A program made the translations under genes and the position numbers. A stretch of DNA of 64,000 nt, taken from positions 1 to 64,000 of the IMG/VR virus record IMGVR_UViG_3300032327_000348; one strand, given 5' to 3'. Each line of letters begins with the position of its first letter. Position 1 is the stretch's first letter. The DNA comes from a virus (taxonomy: Duplodnaviria > Caudoviricetes). Positions 5,214 to 59,489 of the stretch are shown here, piece by piece. Below the pieces are notes generated by a model. The model worked only from the letters and a program-made list of their open reading frames with translations, did not search any database and was not told the DNA's origin.

Positions 5214-6923
5214 ATGCCAAAACTGTCACTATACCGCCCAAATAAACAGAATGATTATCGTTTCTTTGATAGAACAATATCCGAAGAATTGCGTGTTGGC
5301 GGCACGGATTTATACATTCACAAATATCTAGGGCCAACCGATCAGGGTGTTAGTATTGATTATACTCAACCACAATATGAAACATTAAGTCCTACCAATA
5401 TTCAGGATTTATTATTCTTAGAAAATAGAGATAGAACATATGATCCAAATATTTATAGATTACGTGGTCATTATAATGTACAGAATTTAGATTTTGATTT
5501 AAGTCAATTTGGTTTATTCTTAAACAATGATATTGTATTCATTACTGTTCATTATAACGATATGATTGATATTGTCGGTCGGAAACTAATGGTAGGTGAT
5601 GTATTAGAATTACCCCACTTATTAGATTATAATCCATTAAAAGAAACTATACCAGTTGCATTAAAACGATTTATGCAAATTACTGATGCTAATTATGCGA
5701 GTGAAGGTTTCAGTCAAACTTGGTTCCCGCATTTATGGCGTATTAAATGTGAACCACTAGTTGATAGTGAGGAATTTAGTCAGATATTGCAAGAGCCTAT
5801 TAATCAAGATAATTATCTAGGCGTATGGGATATAACTAAACCATACCCGGAAGGATATATTATTAGTTACGGTGATAAGAATTATATTTCCATCACTGAT
5901 GTTCCTGCAGGTACTAATCCACCAAATAATGATTATTGGAGATTAACTGAAGAACAGAATCTTAAAGATATTCTTTCTACATATAATCAGAATATTGCAA
6001 TTAATAATGCTAACCTTGAAGAGGCAAAACGATTACTACCTAAGTCCGGATATGATACTAGTAATTTATATATTGTACCTACATACGGTGTATATAGTGA
6101 AAATGGTGTACCTTCAAATGAGTATAATCAGCCTGCGCCGCCAGTTAATGTTATATCTAGTACAGGTTCTCCGATGCCAGTGGTTGAAATTTTCAATAGC
6201 ACTGAATATGTAAATGATAGTCCATATATAAGAATTCCATCTGCTACCGTAGGTATGATTTGGACTCAAATATTAGATGCAGGATTCCCCGGAATACCGT
6301 CATCACCTAGTATCAAACCTGCAATGGTATTATCAGCAATGCAGTTTGCACCTTCTAGGACAGAAAGTGGTTCAGGTCCAGTAGAGCGTGAGGTCGTATT
6401 AACAATTGATAGTATGATGACTATAACCGGTCCATATGGTACGGCTGATAATACATATGCAACAGCAGATCAAAATCCAGAGGCACCGGGCTTTACTGAT
6501 GAAATTACTCCTGTTATGGACTTCAGAGCAGACTGTGATCCTAGATTCCAATTCATTGCTCGCAGTAGCCCAAGAAGCTTTGGTTATGCCGCTGGGTATT
6601 TAACCGGTGACGGACAAGCTCCCAATGGATATCCAACTGGGGCGGGAATAGCCTTTCCGCAAAATCCCCAAGTTGGAGATTACTTCTTACGAATTGATTA
6701 CTTGCCACAACTTCTATATCGATGGGACGGCCAGATGTGGATTAGAATTAGTAAAAATGTCCGAACAGAGACAGCATTTACTAGTGATGATAAATCACAG
6801 ACAGCAAGTTTCATAAATAACAGTAATGTAACAGTTACAACATCGGGTGTAGTAATCCCACAGAAACAAGCATTGTCTACTATGTTATCTATTGCACCAG
6901 ATCCACTACCACCTAGACCTTAA
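5214..6923 (+). CDS. gp14: Neck / head closure protein (gp14-like) with C-terminal extension
   Basis: IQDLLFLENRDRTYD, FDLSQFGLFL, GDVLELP; directly upstream of gp15; GATAAATAC late promoter. Confidence 0.7.
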   Translation: MPKLSLYRPNKQNDYRFFDRTISEELRVGGTDLYIHKYLGPTDQGVSIDYTQPQYETLSPTNIQDLLFLENRDRTYDPNIYRLRGHYNVQNLDFDLSQFGLFLNNDIVFITVHYNDMIDIVGRKLMVGDVLELPHLLDYNPLKETIPVALKRFMQITDANYASEGFSQTWFPHLWRIKCEPLVDSEEFSQILQEPINQDNYLGVWDITKPYPEGYIISYGDKNYISITDVPAGTNPPNNDYWRLTEEQNLKDILSTYNQNIAINNANLEEAKRLLPKSGYDTSNLYIVPTYGVYSENGVPSNEYNQPAPPVNVISSTGSPMPVVEIFNSTEYVNDSPYIRIPSATVGMIWTQILDAGFPGIPSSPSIKPAMVLSAMQFAPSRTESGSGPVEREVVLTIDSMMTITGPYGTADNTYATADQNPEAPGFTDEITPVMDFRADCDPRFQFIARSSPRSFGYAAGYLTGDGQAPNGYPTGAGIAFPQNPQVGDYFLRIDYLPQLLYRWDGQMWIRISKNVRTETAFTSDDKSQTASFINNSNVTVTTSGVVIPQKQALSTMLSIAPDPLPPRP

Positions 6924-9073: not shown

Positions 9074-10456
9074 TTAAGCACCAGCAATAGTCACGATTGG
9101 GTTAGGCTGTCCACCGTATGTATTAGCGGCGTACGCTGTGTTGAATGTAGCGATAACATCAGGGTTAACACTGTTAACAACAGCAGTACCTGTGCCAGAA
9201 CCAGCACCAGTAGCAACGAATGAAACACCTGTCATGTTAGATGCTGCACCAACTGCTGCCCAGTTTGTATTACCTGAACTATAGATTGTGTATGTTGTAC
9301 CTGCAACTAATGAACCAGCTGCAACTTGTGTTGGGAAGATTTCAGAGTTGTAGCTATTAATACTAGCAACATACGCTGTACCAGAGGCTGCATCAGTAGA
9401 CAAGATATTGAATGTGTTTGGTGTCAATGCTGTGTTAGCGACATTAGCTGTATAGGCTGCACCTAGAGTACCAGTGACTGTACCTTGTACCAAGTACTTT
9501 GTCTTACCTTTTTGACGCACAATATAACCTGCTTCTGGTAGTGCTTGAATGAATGGATCACCTTGGCTAGTAACACCGGTTGCTCCATTTGCTGCATTAC
9601 CAGTCAACACAACTTGTTGTTGTGTTGCATTAGGAGTACCTGTTGCGTTAGTTAATGTAACTGCTGTACCGCCCGGGGTAGTCGCAACAGTAAATGCAGA
9701 TGCGTTAGCAACAGCCTTAACCCAATATGTTGTACCTGTGAATAAACCACCAATGTTAGCACTGAATGCTACAGGACCATCAACAACTAGAGTTTGTGCA
9801 TTACCACTTGTGCGAACAAAGTTACCCGTTGCTTGAGTGTTTGCAACAGCAACAGTTGTATTGCCACCTGTAGCCGATGTAGTACCAACTAATGTAACTG
9901 GTCCATTACCACCATCATATACTGCAAACAAGATTGTACCTGCGGCTACGTTTGCAAAATCAGTTCCTACACCAACTACTACGTTACTTGATGTATTTGC
10001 AATAATAGTACCTGTACCATTAGAACCAAATGCTACATTGCATAGAACTTGATTACCAATGATTGCTGTATTGCCACCAACTACACCATATGTATTGGCG
10101 TTTGTCGATGGGAAACCTGCACCAGATTCTGGATTGTTGAAGTATGCATCAACTACACCTACTGATGCAGAAACTGAACCACCGGTAGTATCAGATAATG
10201 CAACTGGTGTGCGTGTTGTGTTTGCACTTAAATCAGTAGCAGAAGCTGTGAAATTATTTGCATCAACGACTGTTAAAACCCAGTATGTTGTGTTAGATGT
10301 TAGACCACCAACTGATGTGGCTACCACGAATGGCATACCAGCGATAACGCCTAATGTTGTTAAGTTTTGTGATACGGTAACATAATCTGTTGCCGCTGTT
10401 GTATCAGTGATTGTTAAGACTGCTTGAGCCTTTGCGATTTTTAGAGGACGTCCCAT
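9074..10456 (-). CDS. Virion structural protein (A/G/T/N-rich)
   Basis: Late promoter, strong RBS, YIVRQKGKTKYLV motif, composition. Confidence 0.65.
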   Translation of the reverse strand: MGRPLKIAKAQAVLTITDTTAATDYVTVSQNLTTLGVIAGMPFVVATSVGGLTSNTTYWVLTVVDANNFTASATDLSANTTRTPVALSDTTGGSVSASVGVVDAYFNNPESGAGFPSTNANTYGVVGGNTAIIGNQVLCNVAFGSNGTGTIIANTSSNVVVGVGTDFANVAAGTILFAVYDGGNGPVTLVGTTSATGGNTTVAVANTQATGNFVRTSGNAQTLVVDGPVAFSANIGGLFTGTTYWVKAVANASAFTVATTPGGTAVTLTNATGTPNATQQQVVLTGNAANGATGVTSQGDPFIQALPEAGYIVRQKGKTKYLVQGTVTGTLGAAYTANVANTALTPNTFNILSTDAASGTAYVASINSYNSEIFPTQVAAGSLVAGTTYTIYSSGNTNWAAVGAASNMTGVSFVATGAGSGTGTAVVNSVNPDVIATFNTAYAANTYGGQPNPIVTIAGA

Positions 10457-10560
10457 TTGATTTTCCTTTGATAAAATTAGTGAGTTCTAGTCACTACGCA
10501 GTGGGGTACTGCATAAACTCTCCGAATGAGAGCGTATGAATTATTTATCAAAAATACGTA

Positions 10561-10848
10561 TTATTCTGTCCCAGTCGCAGGGTGATTCATGCCCAATGTA
10601 CTAACACTGAATGCTCCGGCTGTGCCTGCTACGTTAATATATGCTATGTAATTTCCTTGTCCAACTAAAAAGTTGTTGTCTACTGTGTTTGCAGGAATAA
10701 TCTCACTTGTTGTCAGATTGGCAGTAACACTAGCGTTACCTACTGCTATAGCGATTGCTGATGTTGTTGTGGCAATACGTACTTTGTCAGTAGTTGCTAC
10801 TGCTGTTAACTGGCTTGTACCGTTTGCTATATAAATTGCTGATGTCAT
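10561..10848 (-). CDS. Small virion structural protein
   Basis: Beta-rich A/T composition, in late operon. Confidence 0.55.
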   Translation of the reverse strand: MTSAIYIANGTSQLTAVATTDKVRIATTTSAIAIAVGNASVTANLTTSEIIPANTVDNNFLVGQGNYIAYINVAGTAGAFSVSTLGMNHPATGTE

Positions 10849-54911: not shown

Positions 54912-54940
54912 ATTGTATCACAGAGTCCATTTATTGTCAA
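54912..54940 (-). promoter_or_regulatory. Early promoter
   Basis: TTGACAATAAAT...TACAAT-ACTTGTATTGA. Confidence 0.85.
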
Positions 54941-55196: not shown

Positions 55197-55234
55197 TTGT
55201 TCAGTATAACACACATCGTGTATTTTGTCAAATT

Positions 55235-55261
55235 AAAAAAATAAGGACCGAAGTCCTTATT
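55235..55261 (-). terminator. Intrinsic terminator of tmRNA
   Basis: AATAAGGAC-TTCG-GTCCTTATT plus U-tract. Confidence 0.88.
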
Positions 55262-55583
55262 GCTATTTTTGGTTACAAGGTATAACTACCTCGCTATTAG
55301 GCGTTTGCTGCCAATAGGAATTGTGAATCGTTTGCGATTACTTTGTTGTGCTTCTGCGACCGGGTCACCCCAATCCTAACGGCTTCTACATTGCCGGACT
55401 GTCCATTTCCGTACTCTTGACCCAATCGATCCTGTGTCAGGCCCATTAGAAAGTACACTAGCACCAGCAACCGGATCAGTGGCGGGGAATCGAACCCACG
55501 TTGATAGTGTACTTACTGGTGGACCCGGCGGGCACTGCCCCCGCGTCTTGAATCCTTTTCTATCTACTTCATACAGTCTTAAC
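55262..55583 (-). ncRNA. ssrA: Circularly permuted (two-piece) tmRNA
   Basis: Acceptor piece ends GCGGG-GGCAGTG-CCCGC-CGGGTCCACCA (55517); coding piece starts GGGCCTGACACAGGATCGA (55444); G3.U70 pair; tag ANDSQFLLAANA* at 55335-55297. Confidence 0.9.
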
Positions 55584-58500
55584 TCAATTGTATTTATTAC
55601 TAAAATACTCTTTTAGCCAAGGCCAATCATAACTTAGTCGTAGTTTGTCTAAATCACCATTGAATGATTCATAGTATTCTACAGCATCTGTGGCACCATC
55701 GATACTATATTGGGCAAAGTCACCTATACCTACAGTTGACCATGTTTTCAATCTGTCTCTACTTACCGGGCTATCATCTAACTTTAGCTTAATTGCTTCA
55801 CGGAAGCTAGTACGCCACGTACTAAATTCGTCAGTGTTGTATCTTGCAACACCGCTATTCAATTCAACAACTTCGTGTTCATTGTCCAACGTAAAGTCAA
55901 GACCTTTACCTATGTTACCCAATGTAATCTGTTTATTGTATGCAATCATAGCTTGGTGACCATACACTAATCCATTGACAGGGTTACTTGCATAAAAAAT
56001 ATAATGCTTTGGTACTTGTAATCTATCTGGTTGCCAACTGAAATCAAACCTACTGTTGACTCGTAACTTAGCAAATACAGTAAACATCCAAGGTGTGTTA
56101 CTTGCTTCTGCAGCCGCGTGATAGGCTTGTACACGACCATTTACACCATCAACTCTAACAACTCTATTAGATAACCCCTTAGTCACGCTCAGTAAGTGTT
56201 CATAGTTCTCGTCAGCGCCGGTTTCACCGTTGCTTAGGAAGACTATATCCAGTGGCCGGGATGTTGCTAGTTTGTTAGATTTAGCAATGTATGGGTAATC
56301 ATACAATTCATTGTTGACATATTCTTTGGCTTCTTTAGGTACAACAATACATGTTCCACCCGTACTAGTAATTAGTATGTTCTTAGATTCTTTTGACCAT
56401 AAACTAATTGGTTCATTGTCAACAACTTTTATTTCTTTGTTGTCTGATGTAATGAATGTAGCATAAGGCCAATCAAAATCAGTATTAGTAACAGAGACAT
56501 GTGTATCACTTTCAGTTATAAAGCTAGGAGCAGGTAAACGTTTTACTTGTTGATGTTGATTGAAGTTAATCTTATCGATATTTTCTAATGTATCTAAATC
56601 TTCAACCAATGTACGCAAACGGTTTACATTGATAAAGAATGTATCGCCGTATTTTTGTTTATCACTAGGGAATACATGCAGTTGTTCCAATGAGAACGGG
56701 TCACATATATAAGTGAAGTCAAAGTTAGTGTAGTCGCAGATAGAACTACACACCCAGATATAGTGATCTTTTTTAATACCCAACTCATACAGCATGTTCT
56801 TCAACGTAGACAAATAATCACCGTCATATTCAATGGTGTAAACATTCTTCTTTGTTTTGTTTTCAAGCAATGATATGATATTATCTATGTTATCATTGCC
56901 ATAGTCAATCAAGTACACATCATATATACAATTGCTTGCGAGTGCTCGTTTTGTTTTAACAAAATTGAGATTATTCAAATGTTCTATGATTTTTACATAC
57001 TTTGTGTCTTCGGGGAACGATTCTTTATTAACTAAGAAAGTTGTACCCCAATGACTCCATTGAGTACCAAACACATGTACCATTTTTTGTTGCCATGGAC
57101 TAGGGTAATAATCAAATGTAAAATCAGTATAATCTAGTTCACTGTTCAATATCCAACACAATTCTGTTTCAGATTTATTGATACAACGATTAATAGTATC
57201 AACCCAACTGTTTAAATACCTTGTCTTTTGAATCTTGGGATAACGTTTTTGTAATTCTTCAAAACGATATTTGCTTTCTATGTTGCTCTTATCAACAAAG
57301 AACATACTCAAGTTACTATCAACTTCAACTTTCTGATCCTCAACATAGTTAAACTCTCTATGACCCATCATGTATAGTGGTGCGTTAACATAGTAAGTTT
57401 GTGTGTTCTTACTATAGTCGTTGCCGAATACGTTAATGTGTCTAAAGTTTTCTTCGTTTGGTTTCCAATTAAAATCAAATTTATCATAATTCAAGTCAGG
57501 GTTGATAGCCCAGAATACTTCATCTTGATGTTGTAATATCAAATCTTCAAGTGTCGTTTTAATCTTGTAACGATTAACTACTGCCTTGCGGGTTTCTTCT
57601 GTTCGTTCCATGAACACAACTTCTGTTGCTCCGGGCACTGTGTATCTAGGACCGTTGTCAGCCCATTGATATATCTGAGGTGGACTGTGTGGGTTAGGTC
57701 TCCAACTAAAGTCAAATGTTTTTAAATCATCGTTGTTGTTTACTGTCCACAATGACATATCAATCTTAGGTATAGCAAGAGGATAGTCCATGTATTTTTT
57801 AATAGTGGCTCCGGGTACAATGTACTCTACTGTTGGTTCAGTCGCACTATCATTCCATTTGTTACCAAAGACATATATCATAGGTGGTTCATATAGATTA
57901 GGGTCAGGCCTCCATCTAAAATCAAAACTATTCATATCAATAGGAATAACTATATTCCATCTGTCCCATTCAGGTGCCAAGTCAACAATATCCATATACT
58001 TGTACTCAGTTGCACCCGGTACATGATATTCAATAGTGGGTTTTTGTTCTGCTGGATAAAATTTGTTACCCCATACATATATGTAGGGTGGACTTGTTGG
58101 GTCGGGTCTCCATGTAAAATCAAACTTAGTTCTATCCACTGGTTGAATTTCTCGCCATCTATCTAATTCAGGTAATACTTCAACCAATTCACTCATATAC
58201 TTGTACTCAGTTGCACCCGGTACATGATATTCAATTGTAGATTGTAATTCTCCGGCAACATGTTTGTTACCCCATACATATATGTAGGGTGGCTCGTGTA
58301 AGTTAGGATCCGGTCTCCATGTAAAATCAAACTTATTTCTATCCACTGGTTGAATCTCTTGCCATCTATCCCATTCTGGTTCTAAATCAACAATACCCAT
58401 GTATTTTTTATCAGTGGCGCCCGGTACTGTATATTCTAATGTAGGTTTAACTTCAGCAGGGTCATATTTGTTACCCCATACATATATGTAGGGTGGACTT

Positions 58501-59489
58501 GTTGGGTCGGGTCTCCATGTAAAATCAAACTTATTTTTATCTATATCGCAATAAACAGTCCAATTATCAGATGGCTTGAGAGCAACATCTTGTGACATAT
58601 GCTTGATGTTAGTCGCACCCGGAACGATATATTCTACTGTGGGTTTTAAATCACTACCATAATGTTTATTACCCCATTGATAGATATAATCAGGTTCTTT
58701 TGGATCGGGAATCCAACAATAGTCAAAATCAATAACATCTTCATGTGTAACCCAATGTTCTGTAGTGGGCAATAATGTTAATAAGTTTGACATGTACTTA
58801 CGTTCAGTAGCGCCCGGTACGTGATACTCTAATGTTGCTTGTGTCTCACCTGGAACATATTTGTTCCCCCACACATAGATATACGCAGGCTCACGTGGAT
58901 CAGGTCTCCATGACATATCAAATTTGTTTTTATCAACTTTATAAAATTCGACCCAACATTCACTATTAGGTAACAATTCTACAACATGATTCATATACTT
59001 GATTTGCGTTGCATTAGGAGTATGATACTCTAAGCAAGTTTTTAATTGTACGGGTGCAAATTTACTACCCCACTTATAGATATAAGGTGGATCAGTTGGG
59101 TCAGGATGCCAACTAAAATCAAATTTAGCACTATCAATTAAATCTAATTCTACCCAATGTTCTGTTTTAATATCTTTTCGTTTAACAATATCAACATCTG
59201 CACGATAGATAGTCAGTGGGTCATCGTTATCTGTGTTACACAACCAAGTGCCACTATCTTTTTGATGTTGACTTGGCCATACATTGTTATGTTCTTGTGC
59301 CCATACATCTTCGTCAGGCAAGAAATCAAAATCAAAATCCCAATCAAAATTTCGATAATCACATAATTCGTTAATTATCCAAAAATGTTCTGTAGTAGAT
59401 TGACTTCTAGCATCAGTTAAATCAATTGCGTGTCGTTCTCTTGGGTGGACATTCGGTTTTTTACCGTAATAAAATACATCTCTTAACAT
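55584..59489 (-). CDS. 1301-aa protein with ~67-aa W/Y/P-rich tandem repeats and C-terminal glycosyltransferase-like modules
   Basis: Repeat FDFxWRPDP..PPYIYVWGNK...EYHVPGAT..KYM; C-term DIVFLSNGE..ADENYE..RVDGVNG. Confidence 0.7.
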   Translation of the reverse strand: MLRDVFYYGKKPNVHPRERHAIDLTDARSQSTTEHFWIINELCDYRNFDWDFDFDFLPDEDVWAQEHNNVWPSQHQKDSGTWLCNTDNDDPLTIYRADVDIVKRKDIKTEHWVELDLIDSAKFDFSWHPDPTDPPYIYKWGSKFAPVQLKTCLEYHTPNATQIKYMNHVVELLPNSECWVEFYKVDKNKFDMSWRPDPREPAYIYVWGNKYVPGETQATLEYHVPGATERKYMSNLLTLLPTTEHWVTHEDVIDFDYCWIPDPKEPDYIYQWGNKHYGSDLKPTVEYIVPGATNIKHMSQDVALKPSDNWTVYCDIDKNKFDFTWRPDPTSPPYIYVWGNKYDPAEVKPTLEYTVPGATDKKYMGIVDLEPEWDRWQEIQPVDRNKFDFTWRPDPNLHEPPYIYVWGNKHVAGELQSTIEYHVPGATEYKYMSELVEVLPELDRWREIQPVDRTKFDFTWRPDPTSPPYIYVWGNKFYPAEQKPTIEYHVPGATEYKYMDIVDLAPEWDRWNIVIPIDMNSFDFRWRPDPNLYEPPMIYVFGNKWNDSATEPTVEYIVPGATIKKYMDYPLAIPKIDMSLWTVNNNDDLKTFDFSWRPNPHSPPQIYQWADNGPRYTVPGATEVVFMERTEETRKAVVNRYKIKTTLEDLILQHQDEVFWAINPDLNYDKFDFNWKPNEENFRHINVFGNDYSKNTQTYYVNAPLYMMGHREFNYVEDQKVEVDSNLSMFFVDKSNIESKYRFEELQKRYPKIQKTRYLNSWVDTINRCINKSETELCWILNSELDYTDFTFDYYPSPWQQKMVHVFGTQWSHWGTTFLVNKESFPEDTKYVKIIEHLNNLNFVKTKRALASNCIYDVYLIDYGNDNIDNIISLLENKTKKNVYTIEYDGDYLSTLKNMLYELGIKKDHYIWVCSSICDYTNFDFTYICDPFSLEQLHVFPSDKQKYGDTFFINVNRLRTLVEDLDTLENIDKINFNQHQQVKRLPAPSFITESDTHVSVTNTDFDWPYATFITSDNKEIKVVDNEPISLWSKESKNILITSTGGTCIVVPKEAKEYVNNELYDYPYIAKSNKLATSRPLDIVFLSNGETGADENYEHLLSVTKGLSNRVVRVDGVNGRVQAYHAAAEASNTPWMFTVFAKLRVNSRFDFSWQPDRLQVPKHYIFYASNPVNGLVYGHQAMIAYNKQITLGNIGKGLDFTLDNEHEVVELNSGVARYNTDEFSTWRTSFREAIKLKLDDSPVSRDRLKTWSTVGIGDFAQYSIDGATDAVEYYESFNGDLDKLRLSYDWPWLKEYFSNKYN
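57600..59130 (-). repeat. About eight coding repeats of ~200 bp
   Basis: 42-bp identity 57993/58194; 68-bp identity 58061/58466. Confidence 0.85.

Follow-up and report, generated by a model that had tools for sequence, protein, structure and literature searches.

A circularly permuted, probably working tmRNA gene with a conserved Asn-Ala tag end in an uncultured T4-like jumbo phage

Does an uncultured phage carry a working gene for its own transfer-messenger RNA (tmRNA) and, if so, from where was that gene derived and what is served by its unusual tag? These questions are raised by positions 1-64,000 of IMG/VR record IMGVR_UViG_3300032327_000348 (the window, i.e., the whole 64,000-nucleotide stretch analyzed), for which an earlier note, made from the letters alone, had described a phage-encoded, circularly permuted two-piece tmRNA with alphaproteobacterial hallmarks, a late promoter and an odd tag end. 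All tmRNA parts lie on the minus strand. As argued below from sequence comparison, the locus very probably represents a working ssrA gene, encoding a circularly permuted tmRNA, of a T4-like jumbo phage of some 350 kb.

A search of the window with the Rfam model tmRNA_permuted (RF04321) returned a match of 85.8 bits (cut-off, 47; E = 4.9e-15 for the 64-kb window) covering the full model (1-213), while ARAGORN run at relaxed thresholds (-ps) returned, across all 112 kb of the record, a single permuted tmRNA, flagged 'p' and reporting the tag ANDSQFLLAANA, in agreement with the tag read earlier. As in RF04321, the 3' tRNA-like half comes first, then a spacer, then the 5' half with the tag frame. 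Indeed, each of the elements listed in the earlier note, namely the promoter-type motif, T-arm, acceptor, 72-nt spacer, tag, pseudoknot and UUCG terminator, was found on the minus strand where it had been placed.

The acceptor piece (55517-55578; 5' end predicted) was delimited by Rfam alignment and covariation (helices 1-4). It contains the 5' strands of P2 (GACTG, 55578-55574; GATTCAA, 55554-55548), the T-arm (GCGGG-GGCAGTG-CCCGC, 55544-55528) and the acceptor 3' strand (CGGGTCC, 55527-55521), followed by ACCA (55520-55517). Beyond the spacer (55445-55516), outlined by its fold and by covariation helices 5-6, comes the coding piece (55234-55444), which holds the 5' half, the tag, the 3' pseudoknot (PK2) and the terminator, as supported by Rfam, ARAGORN, beta-model alignment and covariation. 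This piece opens with the acceptor 5' strand (GGGCCTG, 55444-55438) and includes a D-like region (ACACAGGATCGATT), the 3' strands of P2 (55425-55419 and 55401-55397) and the core of pseudoknot 1 (PK1), a 22-mer (CGGCAATGTAGAAGCCGTTAGG) at 55375-55396. Together, GGGCCTG and CGGGTCC form a 7-bp stem that includes G3.U70 and that, with a discriminator A, CCA and an adjoining T-arm, has the make-up of an alanine-type acceptor. The tag frame (55294-55335, as delimited by ARAGORN -ps) starts with an alanine resume codon and reads GCA AAC GAT TCA CAA TTC CTA TTG GCA GCA AAC GCC before ending in TAA TAG. The 3' pseudoknot (55262-55292; S1, GAGGT/ACCTT; S2, GTTAT/ATAGC; loop, GTAACCAAAA) follows, and then an intrinsic terminator, identified by pattern scan, with a 9-bp stem and a T run (AATAAGGAC-TTCG-GTCCTTATT, 55234-55261).

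Several points weigh against assigning a working tmRNA gene to this locus. ARAGORN at default settings did not find the tmRNA in the window, such that the check proposed earlier succeeded only with -ps. The T-loop, GGCAGTG, is non-standard, and the sub-type models score weakly (alpha_tmRNA, RF01849, 52.1 bits against a cut-off of 50; beta_tmRNA, RF01850, 56.2 bits, under its cut-off of 84), as against 143-172 bits reached by three permuted tmRNAs of bacteria on the general model. Compatibility with the SmpB and ClpX of the host is an assumption, and the effect of the tag end on degradation considered below is extrapolated from Escherichia coli ClpXP and assumed for the host ClpX.

The relatives of the locus nonetheless argue for function. 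Blastn and megablast searches of 50,697 GenBank phages returned no match, nor did an exact 31-mer covering the T-arm and acceptor match IMG/VR, a collection that may omit the window's own record. The exact PK1 22-mer is present in at least 119 IMG/VR contigs. To measure covariation, 50 distinct family members were aligned, with the window's structure as reference, and compared with 500 shuffles. In the acceptor stem, all cells (100%) are paired, with G1-C, G2-C and G3.U being invariant and the four other pairs varying on both sides. Paired cells make up 99.6% of the T stem, 88.8% and 97.1% of the P2 helices, 100% of a small hairpin after PK1 and approximately 90% of the terminator, which also covaries (helices 14-15). 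Double changes were seen in 50 of 65 pairs, none of the 500 shuffles attained any of the observed measures, and pairing collapsed to 35-49% when partners were shifted by 1-3 columns. In the 3' pseudoknot, relatives show compensatory changes such as GAGGC/GCCTT, GAGGG/CCCTT and AACTAT/ATAGT.

The tag frame is likewise retained in relatives. The earlier note had named a missing covariance-model match and loss of the tag frame in related phages as grounds for abandoning a phage-encoded permuted tmRNA; neither was encountered, the frame being intact and conserved. Although poor scores on the sub-type models, a 'p' flag from ARAGORN and an unusual tag end might be expected of a decaying, functionless relic, such an origin is barely credible given that the helices are all intact and strongly covarying, that the frame is conserved and that the family is found in complete genomes of many phages. 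Rather, the pattern of substitution indicates that the phage tmRNA is under selection for both RNA structure and tag peptide. Moreover, family members with the window's tag bear different tRNA-like domains and spacers; the tRNA-like domain, spacer and tag are modules that recombine.

Examination of the tags across the family revealed ANDSQFALAA, ANDEQFALAA and ANDSKFALAA to be the most common. By contrast, those of the window's subgroup have two additional residues and terminate in Asn-Ala (..NA) rather than in the usual ..ALAA. This -NA class comprises 25 instances, corresponding to seven peptides (ANDSQFLLAANA, ANDDTFLLAANA, ANDSQYLVAANA, ANDSQYLLAANA, ANDDTFLLASNA, ANDDTYLLTANA and ANDSQFLQAVNA) and 11 nucleotide versions, as collected with a pattern preset to AAC-GCN-stop, such that those codons are constant in part because of the search itself. 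Elsewhere in the tag, Leu7 is encoded by CTA, CTT, CTC or TTG, which span the two leucine codon families, the codons for N2, D3 and A12 vary without altering the residue, and either TAA or TGA serves as stop at an unchanged position. The unusual tag end remarked upon earlier is thus a conserved feature and not a one-off. Because the Asn codon of the -NA tags aligns with the stop codon of ..ALAA members, the simplest history would be a stop-loss extension of the ..LAA end.

Addition of Asn-Ala replaces the penultimate Ala that is read by ClpX. In E. coli, the terminal Ala-Ala-COO- is the main determinant for ClpXP, and mutation of the penultimate or last Ala raises the Michaelis constant, KM (PMC7652416). 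By extrapolation from the E. coli enzyme, -NA-tagged products are probably poorer ClpXP substrates or are routed to another protease, with ribosome release kept. Whether the Asn-Ala end is moreover an adaptive phage variant, one that preserves release while placing tagged, mostly phage, proteins beyond the reach of ClpXP or handing them to another protease, is a more tentative proposal, and rather doubtful at present. Were -NA tags to escape ClpXP, this would argue that ribosome release and not proteolysis is what the phage needs, and the near-identical tmRNAs of sister phages ending in -ALAA and -AANA would amount to a natural experiment distinguishing the need for rescue from the need for tagging. 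Separately, ten family loci encode tags of 28-29 residues (e.g., ANANTGEVTVSGKNVKFSARTAQRQTLAV and AKASTSGSFKFSGKGVKLASARREAVLA) that terminate in LAV or LA and are conserved, though with variation.

The phage carrying this gene was next considered. The record comprises 111,934 bp, has a G+C content of 36% and contains no tRNA genes along its 111,934 bp. It was judged to be 32% complete, such that the genome would be approximately 350 kb. In agreement, three complete or near-complete (95-100%) relatives with the same tmRNA family are 331-353 kb long, one having terminal repeats. All three encode homologues of the 1301-aa open reading frame (ORF) found just upstream of the tmRNA, and a T4-type Gp23 capsid protein is encoded in the complete relatives. 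The nearest cultured relatives are distant T4-like jumbo phages, namely Sinorhizobium phage Phosso, Pseudomonas phage PA5oct, Vibrio phage 2.275.O and Cronobacter phage GAP32, with capsid identities of 64-72% (Phosso, 72%). A search for smpB in this record and in the three 95-100% complete relatives found none. As such, of the two components needed for rescue, the phage would contribute the RNA alone. Huge phages that are likewise jumbo and tmRNA-bearing have been surveyed (Al-Shayeb et al., 2020; PMC7162821); SmpB of phage origin is among the findings of that study, whereas none is found in this clade.

A working model of how the gene would be used can be offered. Transcription would start at the phage ATAAATA motif or reach the gene as read-through of the structural-type gene lying upstream, and would end at the UUCG terminator. 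In the resulting precursor, the 7-bp acceptor stem would lead into a 4 x 4 loop (ACCA opposite UAAU) and from there into a spacer stem of approximately 12 bp. Host RNase P would cut 5' of G1 in the coding piece, with trimming to CCA being left to 3' processing by the host, thereby freeing the 72-nt spacer and leaving two RNAs, of approximately 62-68 and 205-211 nt, joined by the acceptor stem and P2. The product would be charged by host alanyl-tRNA synthetase, given G3.U70 and the discriminator A, and delivered to stalled ribosomes by host SmpB, assuming compatibility, together with EF-Tu. Translation would then restart on GCA, appending ANDSQFLLAANA.

Reliance on host SmpB also raises the opposite possibility, namely that the RNA is a decoy that inhibits host trans-translation by titrating SmpB, rather than a rescuer. 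Without an smpB of its own, the phage would compete for the host protein, an RNA consisting solely of a tRNA-like domain from mycobacteriophage DS6A inhibits tmRNA (PMC4131195), and the non-canonical tag end could suit a lost degradation function. Yet, resume context, frame, stop position and tag peptide are all under purifying selection, and PK1, PK2 and P2, none of which a decoy would need, are conserved and covary. A decoy role is accordingly held to be highly improbable, and rescue by a working phage tmRNA is the reading retained.

The spacer proved to be organized in a regular manner. In the window, a stem opens directly 3' of CCA (G55516-C55450), includes one U.U mismatch and then 10 bp, and closes 4 nt (UAAU) 5' of G1 of the coding piece. 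The same geometry recurs in 60 distinct family spacers: the stem opens at the first base after CCA in 56 and closes exactly 4 nt before G1 in 55, the last four spacer bases being UGAU or UAAU in 57. Its median length is 11.5 bp, with at least 8 bp being found in 58 of the 60, as opposed to 11% of shuffled spacers. This closing stem covaries (helices 5-6, 50 members), while the spacer sequence itself is not conserved across the family.

Within its stem, the window's spacer holds a small hairpin and a T-arm-like hairpin with an 8-nt loop (GTGGG-TTCGATTC-CCCGC, 55482-55499). T-arm-like hairpins were detected in 7 of the 60 distinct spacers, relative to approximately 0.3 expected, one of the seven being mis-parsed and containing the gene's real T-arm. 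ARAGORN called no tRNAs in the spacers at default or 90% thresholds, doing so only at 80%. The window's whole spacer is approximately 85% identical to free-standing hairpins lying among tRNA genes of two phage contigs, L308 (approximately 10565-10654, minus strand) and L309 (7941-8030, plus strand), at neither of which loci was a tmRNA found. There, an 18-bp stem surrounds the same T-arm-like hairpin and shows two compensatory changes relative to the window's spacer. The L308 homologue begins at the CCA of a tRNA-Trp, and a weak tRNA/YrlA-like match lies approximately 55 nt downstream of that of L309. In another member (IMGVR_UViG_3300032323_001214, 250 kb; 6267-6623), the spacer extends to approximately 375 nt and includes a 119-codon ORF with faint, sub-threshold likeness to the RNA 2'-phosphotransferase Tpt1/KptA (E = 0.064).

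The T-arm-like hairpin was also considered as a fossil of a standard T-arm since replaced, as suggested by a match to the family's ACGYGGGTTCGAYTCCC some 9 standard deviations above shuffles. This explanation was dropped, as the hairpin lies inside the closing stem and not ahead of the acceptor strand, and as the whole spacer has free-standing homologues. Instead, the spacer is read, from these comparisons, as a stem-closed slot with exchangeable cargo. Taken further, the cargo could be the main product of the locus, a small tRNA-like RNA freed by tRNA-processing enzymes, with the tmRNA frame serving chiefly as scaffold. The homology to free-standing hairpins in the L308 and L309 tRNA arrays, the excess of T-arm-like hairpins and the occupation of the slot by ORFs in other members would fit such a role. 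Still, spacer content varies across the family while the mature tmRNA parts are conserved, only three copies of this element were found, and its T-loop is of 8 rather than 7 nt, making this explanation quite improbable and leaving the tmRNA itself as the likely product. An intact tRNA-Ala gene in the spacer of one permuted tmRNA was termed unique in the tmRNA database paper (PMC11915505); common to that case and the present one is a tRNA-type structure in the excised segment, although here it is a T-arm-like hairpin in a stem-closed element and no tRNA. A stem-closed spacer with exchangeable cargo is relevant to the processing of two-piece tmRNAs.

The claim that the tmRNA bears alphaproteobacterial hallmarks held only in part. 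The order of acceptor piece, spacer and coding piece is that of the alphaproteobacterial two-piece tmRNA (Caulobacter; Keiler, Shapiro and Williams, 2000; RF01849), with which the phage RNA also shares a GGCRGU-type T-loop, the D-region AGGAUCGA, a PK1 of the form CCGG..CCGUU and a single 3' pseudoknot; likeness to the alpha consensus is seen in the T-loop, D-like region and PK1. Unlike the alpha model, the phage RNA has no upstream 5' hairpin (deleted in the alignment), three non-canonical pairs in P2, a tag that is not of the ANDN type and a 3' UUCG terminator hairpin. The alpha model passes its cut-off narrowly, and the beta model scores more on the same stretch; cyano_tmRNA (RF01851) gave no match at E <= 10 in the window. 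With the betaproteobacterial two-piece tmRNA (Sharkady and Williams, 2004; RF01850), as represented by Thauera, are shared the 3' pseudoknot loop UUACCAAA and the terminal UUCG hairpin, the AACCAAA loop noted earlier also fitting the beta model. Moreover, the family tag ANDEQFALAA is near to ANDERFALAA of Thauera. Unlike the beta form, the window's T-loop and D-region are non-standard.

The T-loop itself is not constant in the phage family. GGCAGTG was counted in 49 of 89 cases, the remainder having TTCGACT, TGCGAAT, TTCGAAT and others, each with a matched D-region. GGCAGTG always occurs together with ACACAGGATCGATT; where TTCGACT takes its place, CCATGGTTTCGACA is present, with the rest of the RNA being near-identical. 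Since T-loop types are exchanged within one phage family, GGCAGTG does not appear to mark lineage or host, and an 'alpha' T-loop alone would be a poor guide for host prediction.

These findings bear on the possibility of recent capture from an alphaproteobacterial host, whereby the gene would be that host's tmRNA carried along and would so mark the host. The T-loop GGCAGTG, the D-region AGGATCGA and the PK1 CCGG..CCGTT are alpha-like, alpha_tmRNA passes its cut-off, and Phosso, with its 72% identical capsid, bears an alpha-type permuted tmRNA with the tag ANDNVSTKVALAA. On the other hand, the beta model outscores the alpha model, T-loop types are swapped within the family, the tags (ANDSQF/ANDEQF..ALAA) are near that of Thauera and not alpha ANDN, and the family is old and phage-borne. 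Furthermore, when 185,579 species, each represented by one genome, were searched with a PK1 19-mer, 38 loci were returned, of which 37 were bare 20-21-nt matches (mostly in Microcoleus) without a tmRNA and were discarded. The sole tmRNA-bearing match is on a 183-kb contig binned in a Haliscomenobacter metagenome-assembled genome (MAG) whose own, standard tmRNA lies elsewhere. Recent host capture is thus considered unlikely, and the alpha-like look of the phage gene probably reflects ancestry within this phage lineage, in which Phosso has an alpha-type permuted tmRNA. Contigs C1 and C90 of the MAG 'Haliscomenobacter sp.' EUL_031 carry phage-type permuted tmRNAs with the tags ANDSQYLVAANA and ANDEQFALAA and with neighboring tRNA genes; these copies in a Bacteroidota MAG may be jumbo-phage DNA that was mis-binned, and would otherwise hint at the host only weakly.

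The Phosso tmRNA (PV764938.1, 349596-350198, minus strand), unannotated and found here with RF04321 (113 bits), is missed by ARAGORN. Features in common are the permuted form, the UUCG terminator and, ahead of G1, a UGAU leader, yet the Phosso tmRNA differs in being clearly alpha-type, with the T-loop GGCGGTA, the tag noted above and a 410-nt spacer.

Upstream of the acceptor piece, the promoter-type motif ATAAATA (55591-55597, within the octamer ATAAATAC, 55597-55590) lies within the final codons of the 1301-aa ORF and 12 nt ahead of the first conserved tmRNA helix. Of 44 copies of ATAAATA in the 112-kb record, 25 (57%) are intergenic, even though intergenic DNA makes up 8% of the sequence; within 60 nt upstream of an ORF, 21 copies are on the same strand and 5 on the opposite. 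This enrichment and sense bias mark ATAAATA as a genuine promoter-type motif of this phage, as had been supposed. Moreover, AATAAATA matches the T4-type late promoter TATAAATA at 7 of 8 positions. Between the 1301-aa ORF and the tmRNA, no -35 box and no terminator were seen. At the same position in relatives is found either a near-consensus TTGACA-17-TATAAT promoter or, for 15 distinct upstream sequences, TAAATA. A late-type promoter for the window's tmRNA is therefore plausible on motif grounds. A Pfam search for gp45 was uninformative, with no match being obtained anywhere, controls included. Two near-consensus sigma-70-type promoters, both with TG, were also noted on the minus strand, at 55203-55231 (TTGACA-17-TATACT) and 54912-54940 (TTGACA-17-TACAAT); the first directly follows the tmRNA terminator and precedes a 90-aa ORF, an arrangement common to many relatives.

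Two-piece tmRNAs of phages (PMC9004378) and tmRNAs of huge phages (PMC7162821) are already known, with 53 distinct two-piece tmRNAs having been counted in phage genomes (Buchholz et al., 2022; PMC9004378). The Methylophilales phage Melnitz and pelagimyophages described in that study are, like the present phage, aquatic and T4-like, with a complete permuted ssrA showing alpha-like features and with smpB not reported. In Melnitz, of 141 kb, ssrA lies behind an early promoter and beside a glutamine riboswitch. The present phage, by contrast, is of approximately 350 kb, has a late-type ATAAATA motif and a tag ending in -NA, and Rfam revealed no riboswitch in the 64-kb window. No published description was found of a conserved -NA tag class, of tRNA-like domain swapping within one phage family or of the spacer element seen here. 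The reasons considered for the carriage of tmRNA by phages are the freeing of ribosomes after host shut-off, the countering of RNA-cutting defenses and protein recycling. In this context, the family offers comparative material in the form of more than 100 phage copies without smpB, swapped tRNA-like domains, sigma-70-type as opposed to late-type promoters and a conserved tag class that would mask the Ala-Ala degron.

Elsewhere in the window, the 1301-aa ORF (55584-59489, minus strand; stop, 55586-55584) yielded no match in Pfam or PHROG. Some 170 residues at its C-terminus are repeated in several paralogues of related jumbo phages, which suggests that the predicted product is a fiber or receptor-binding protein. 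Finally, the Rfam freshwater-2 RNA motif was detected at 10454-10533 (minus strand; 64.6 bits, cut-off 49.9), immediately 5' of an ATG, and hints at a freshwater origin of the phage.

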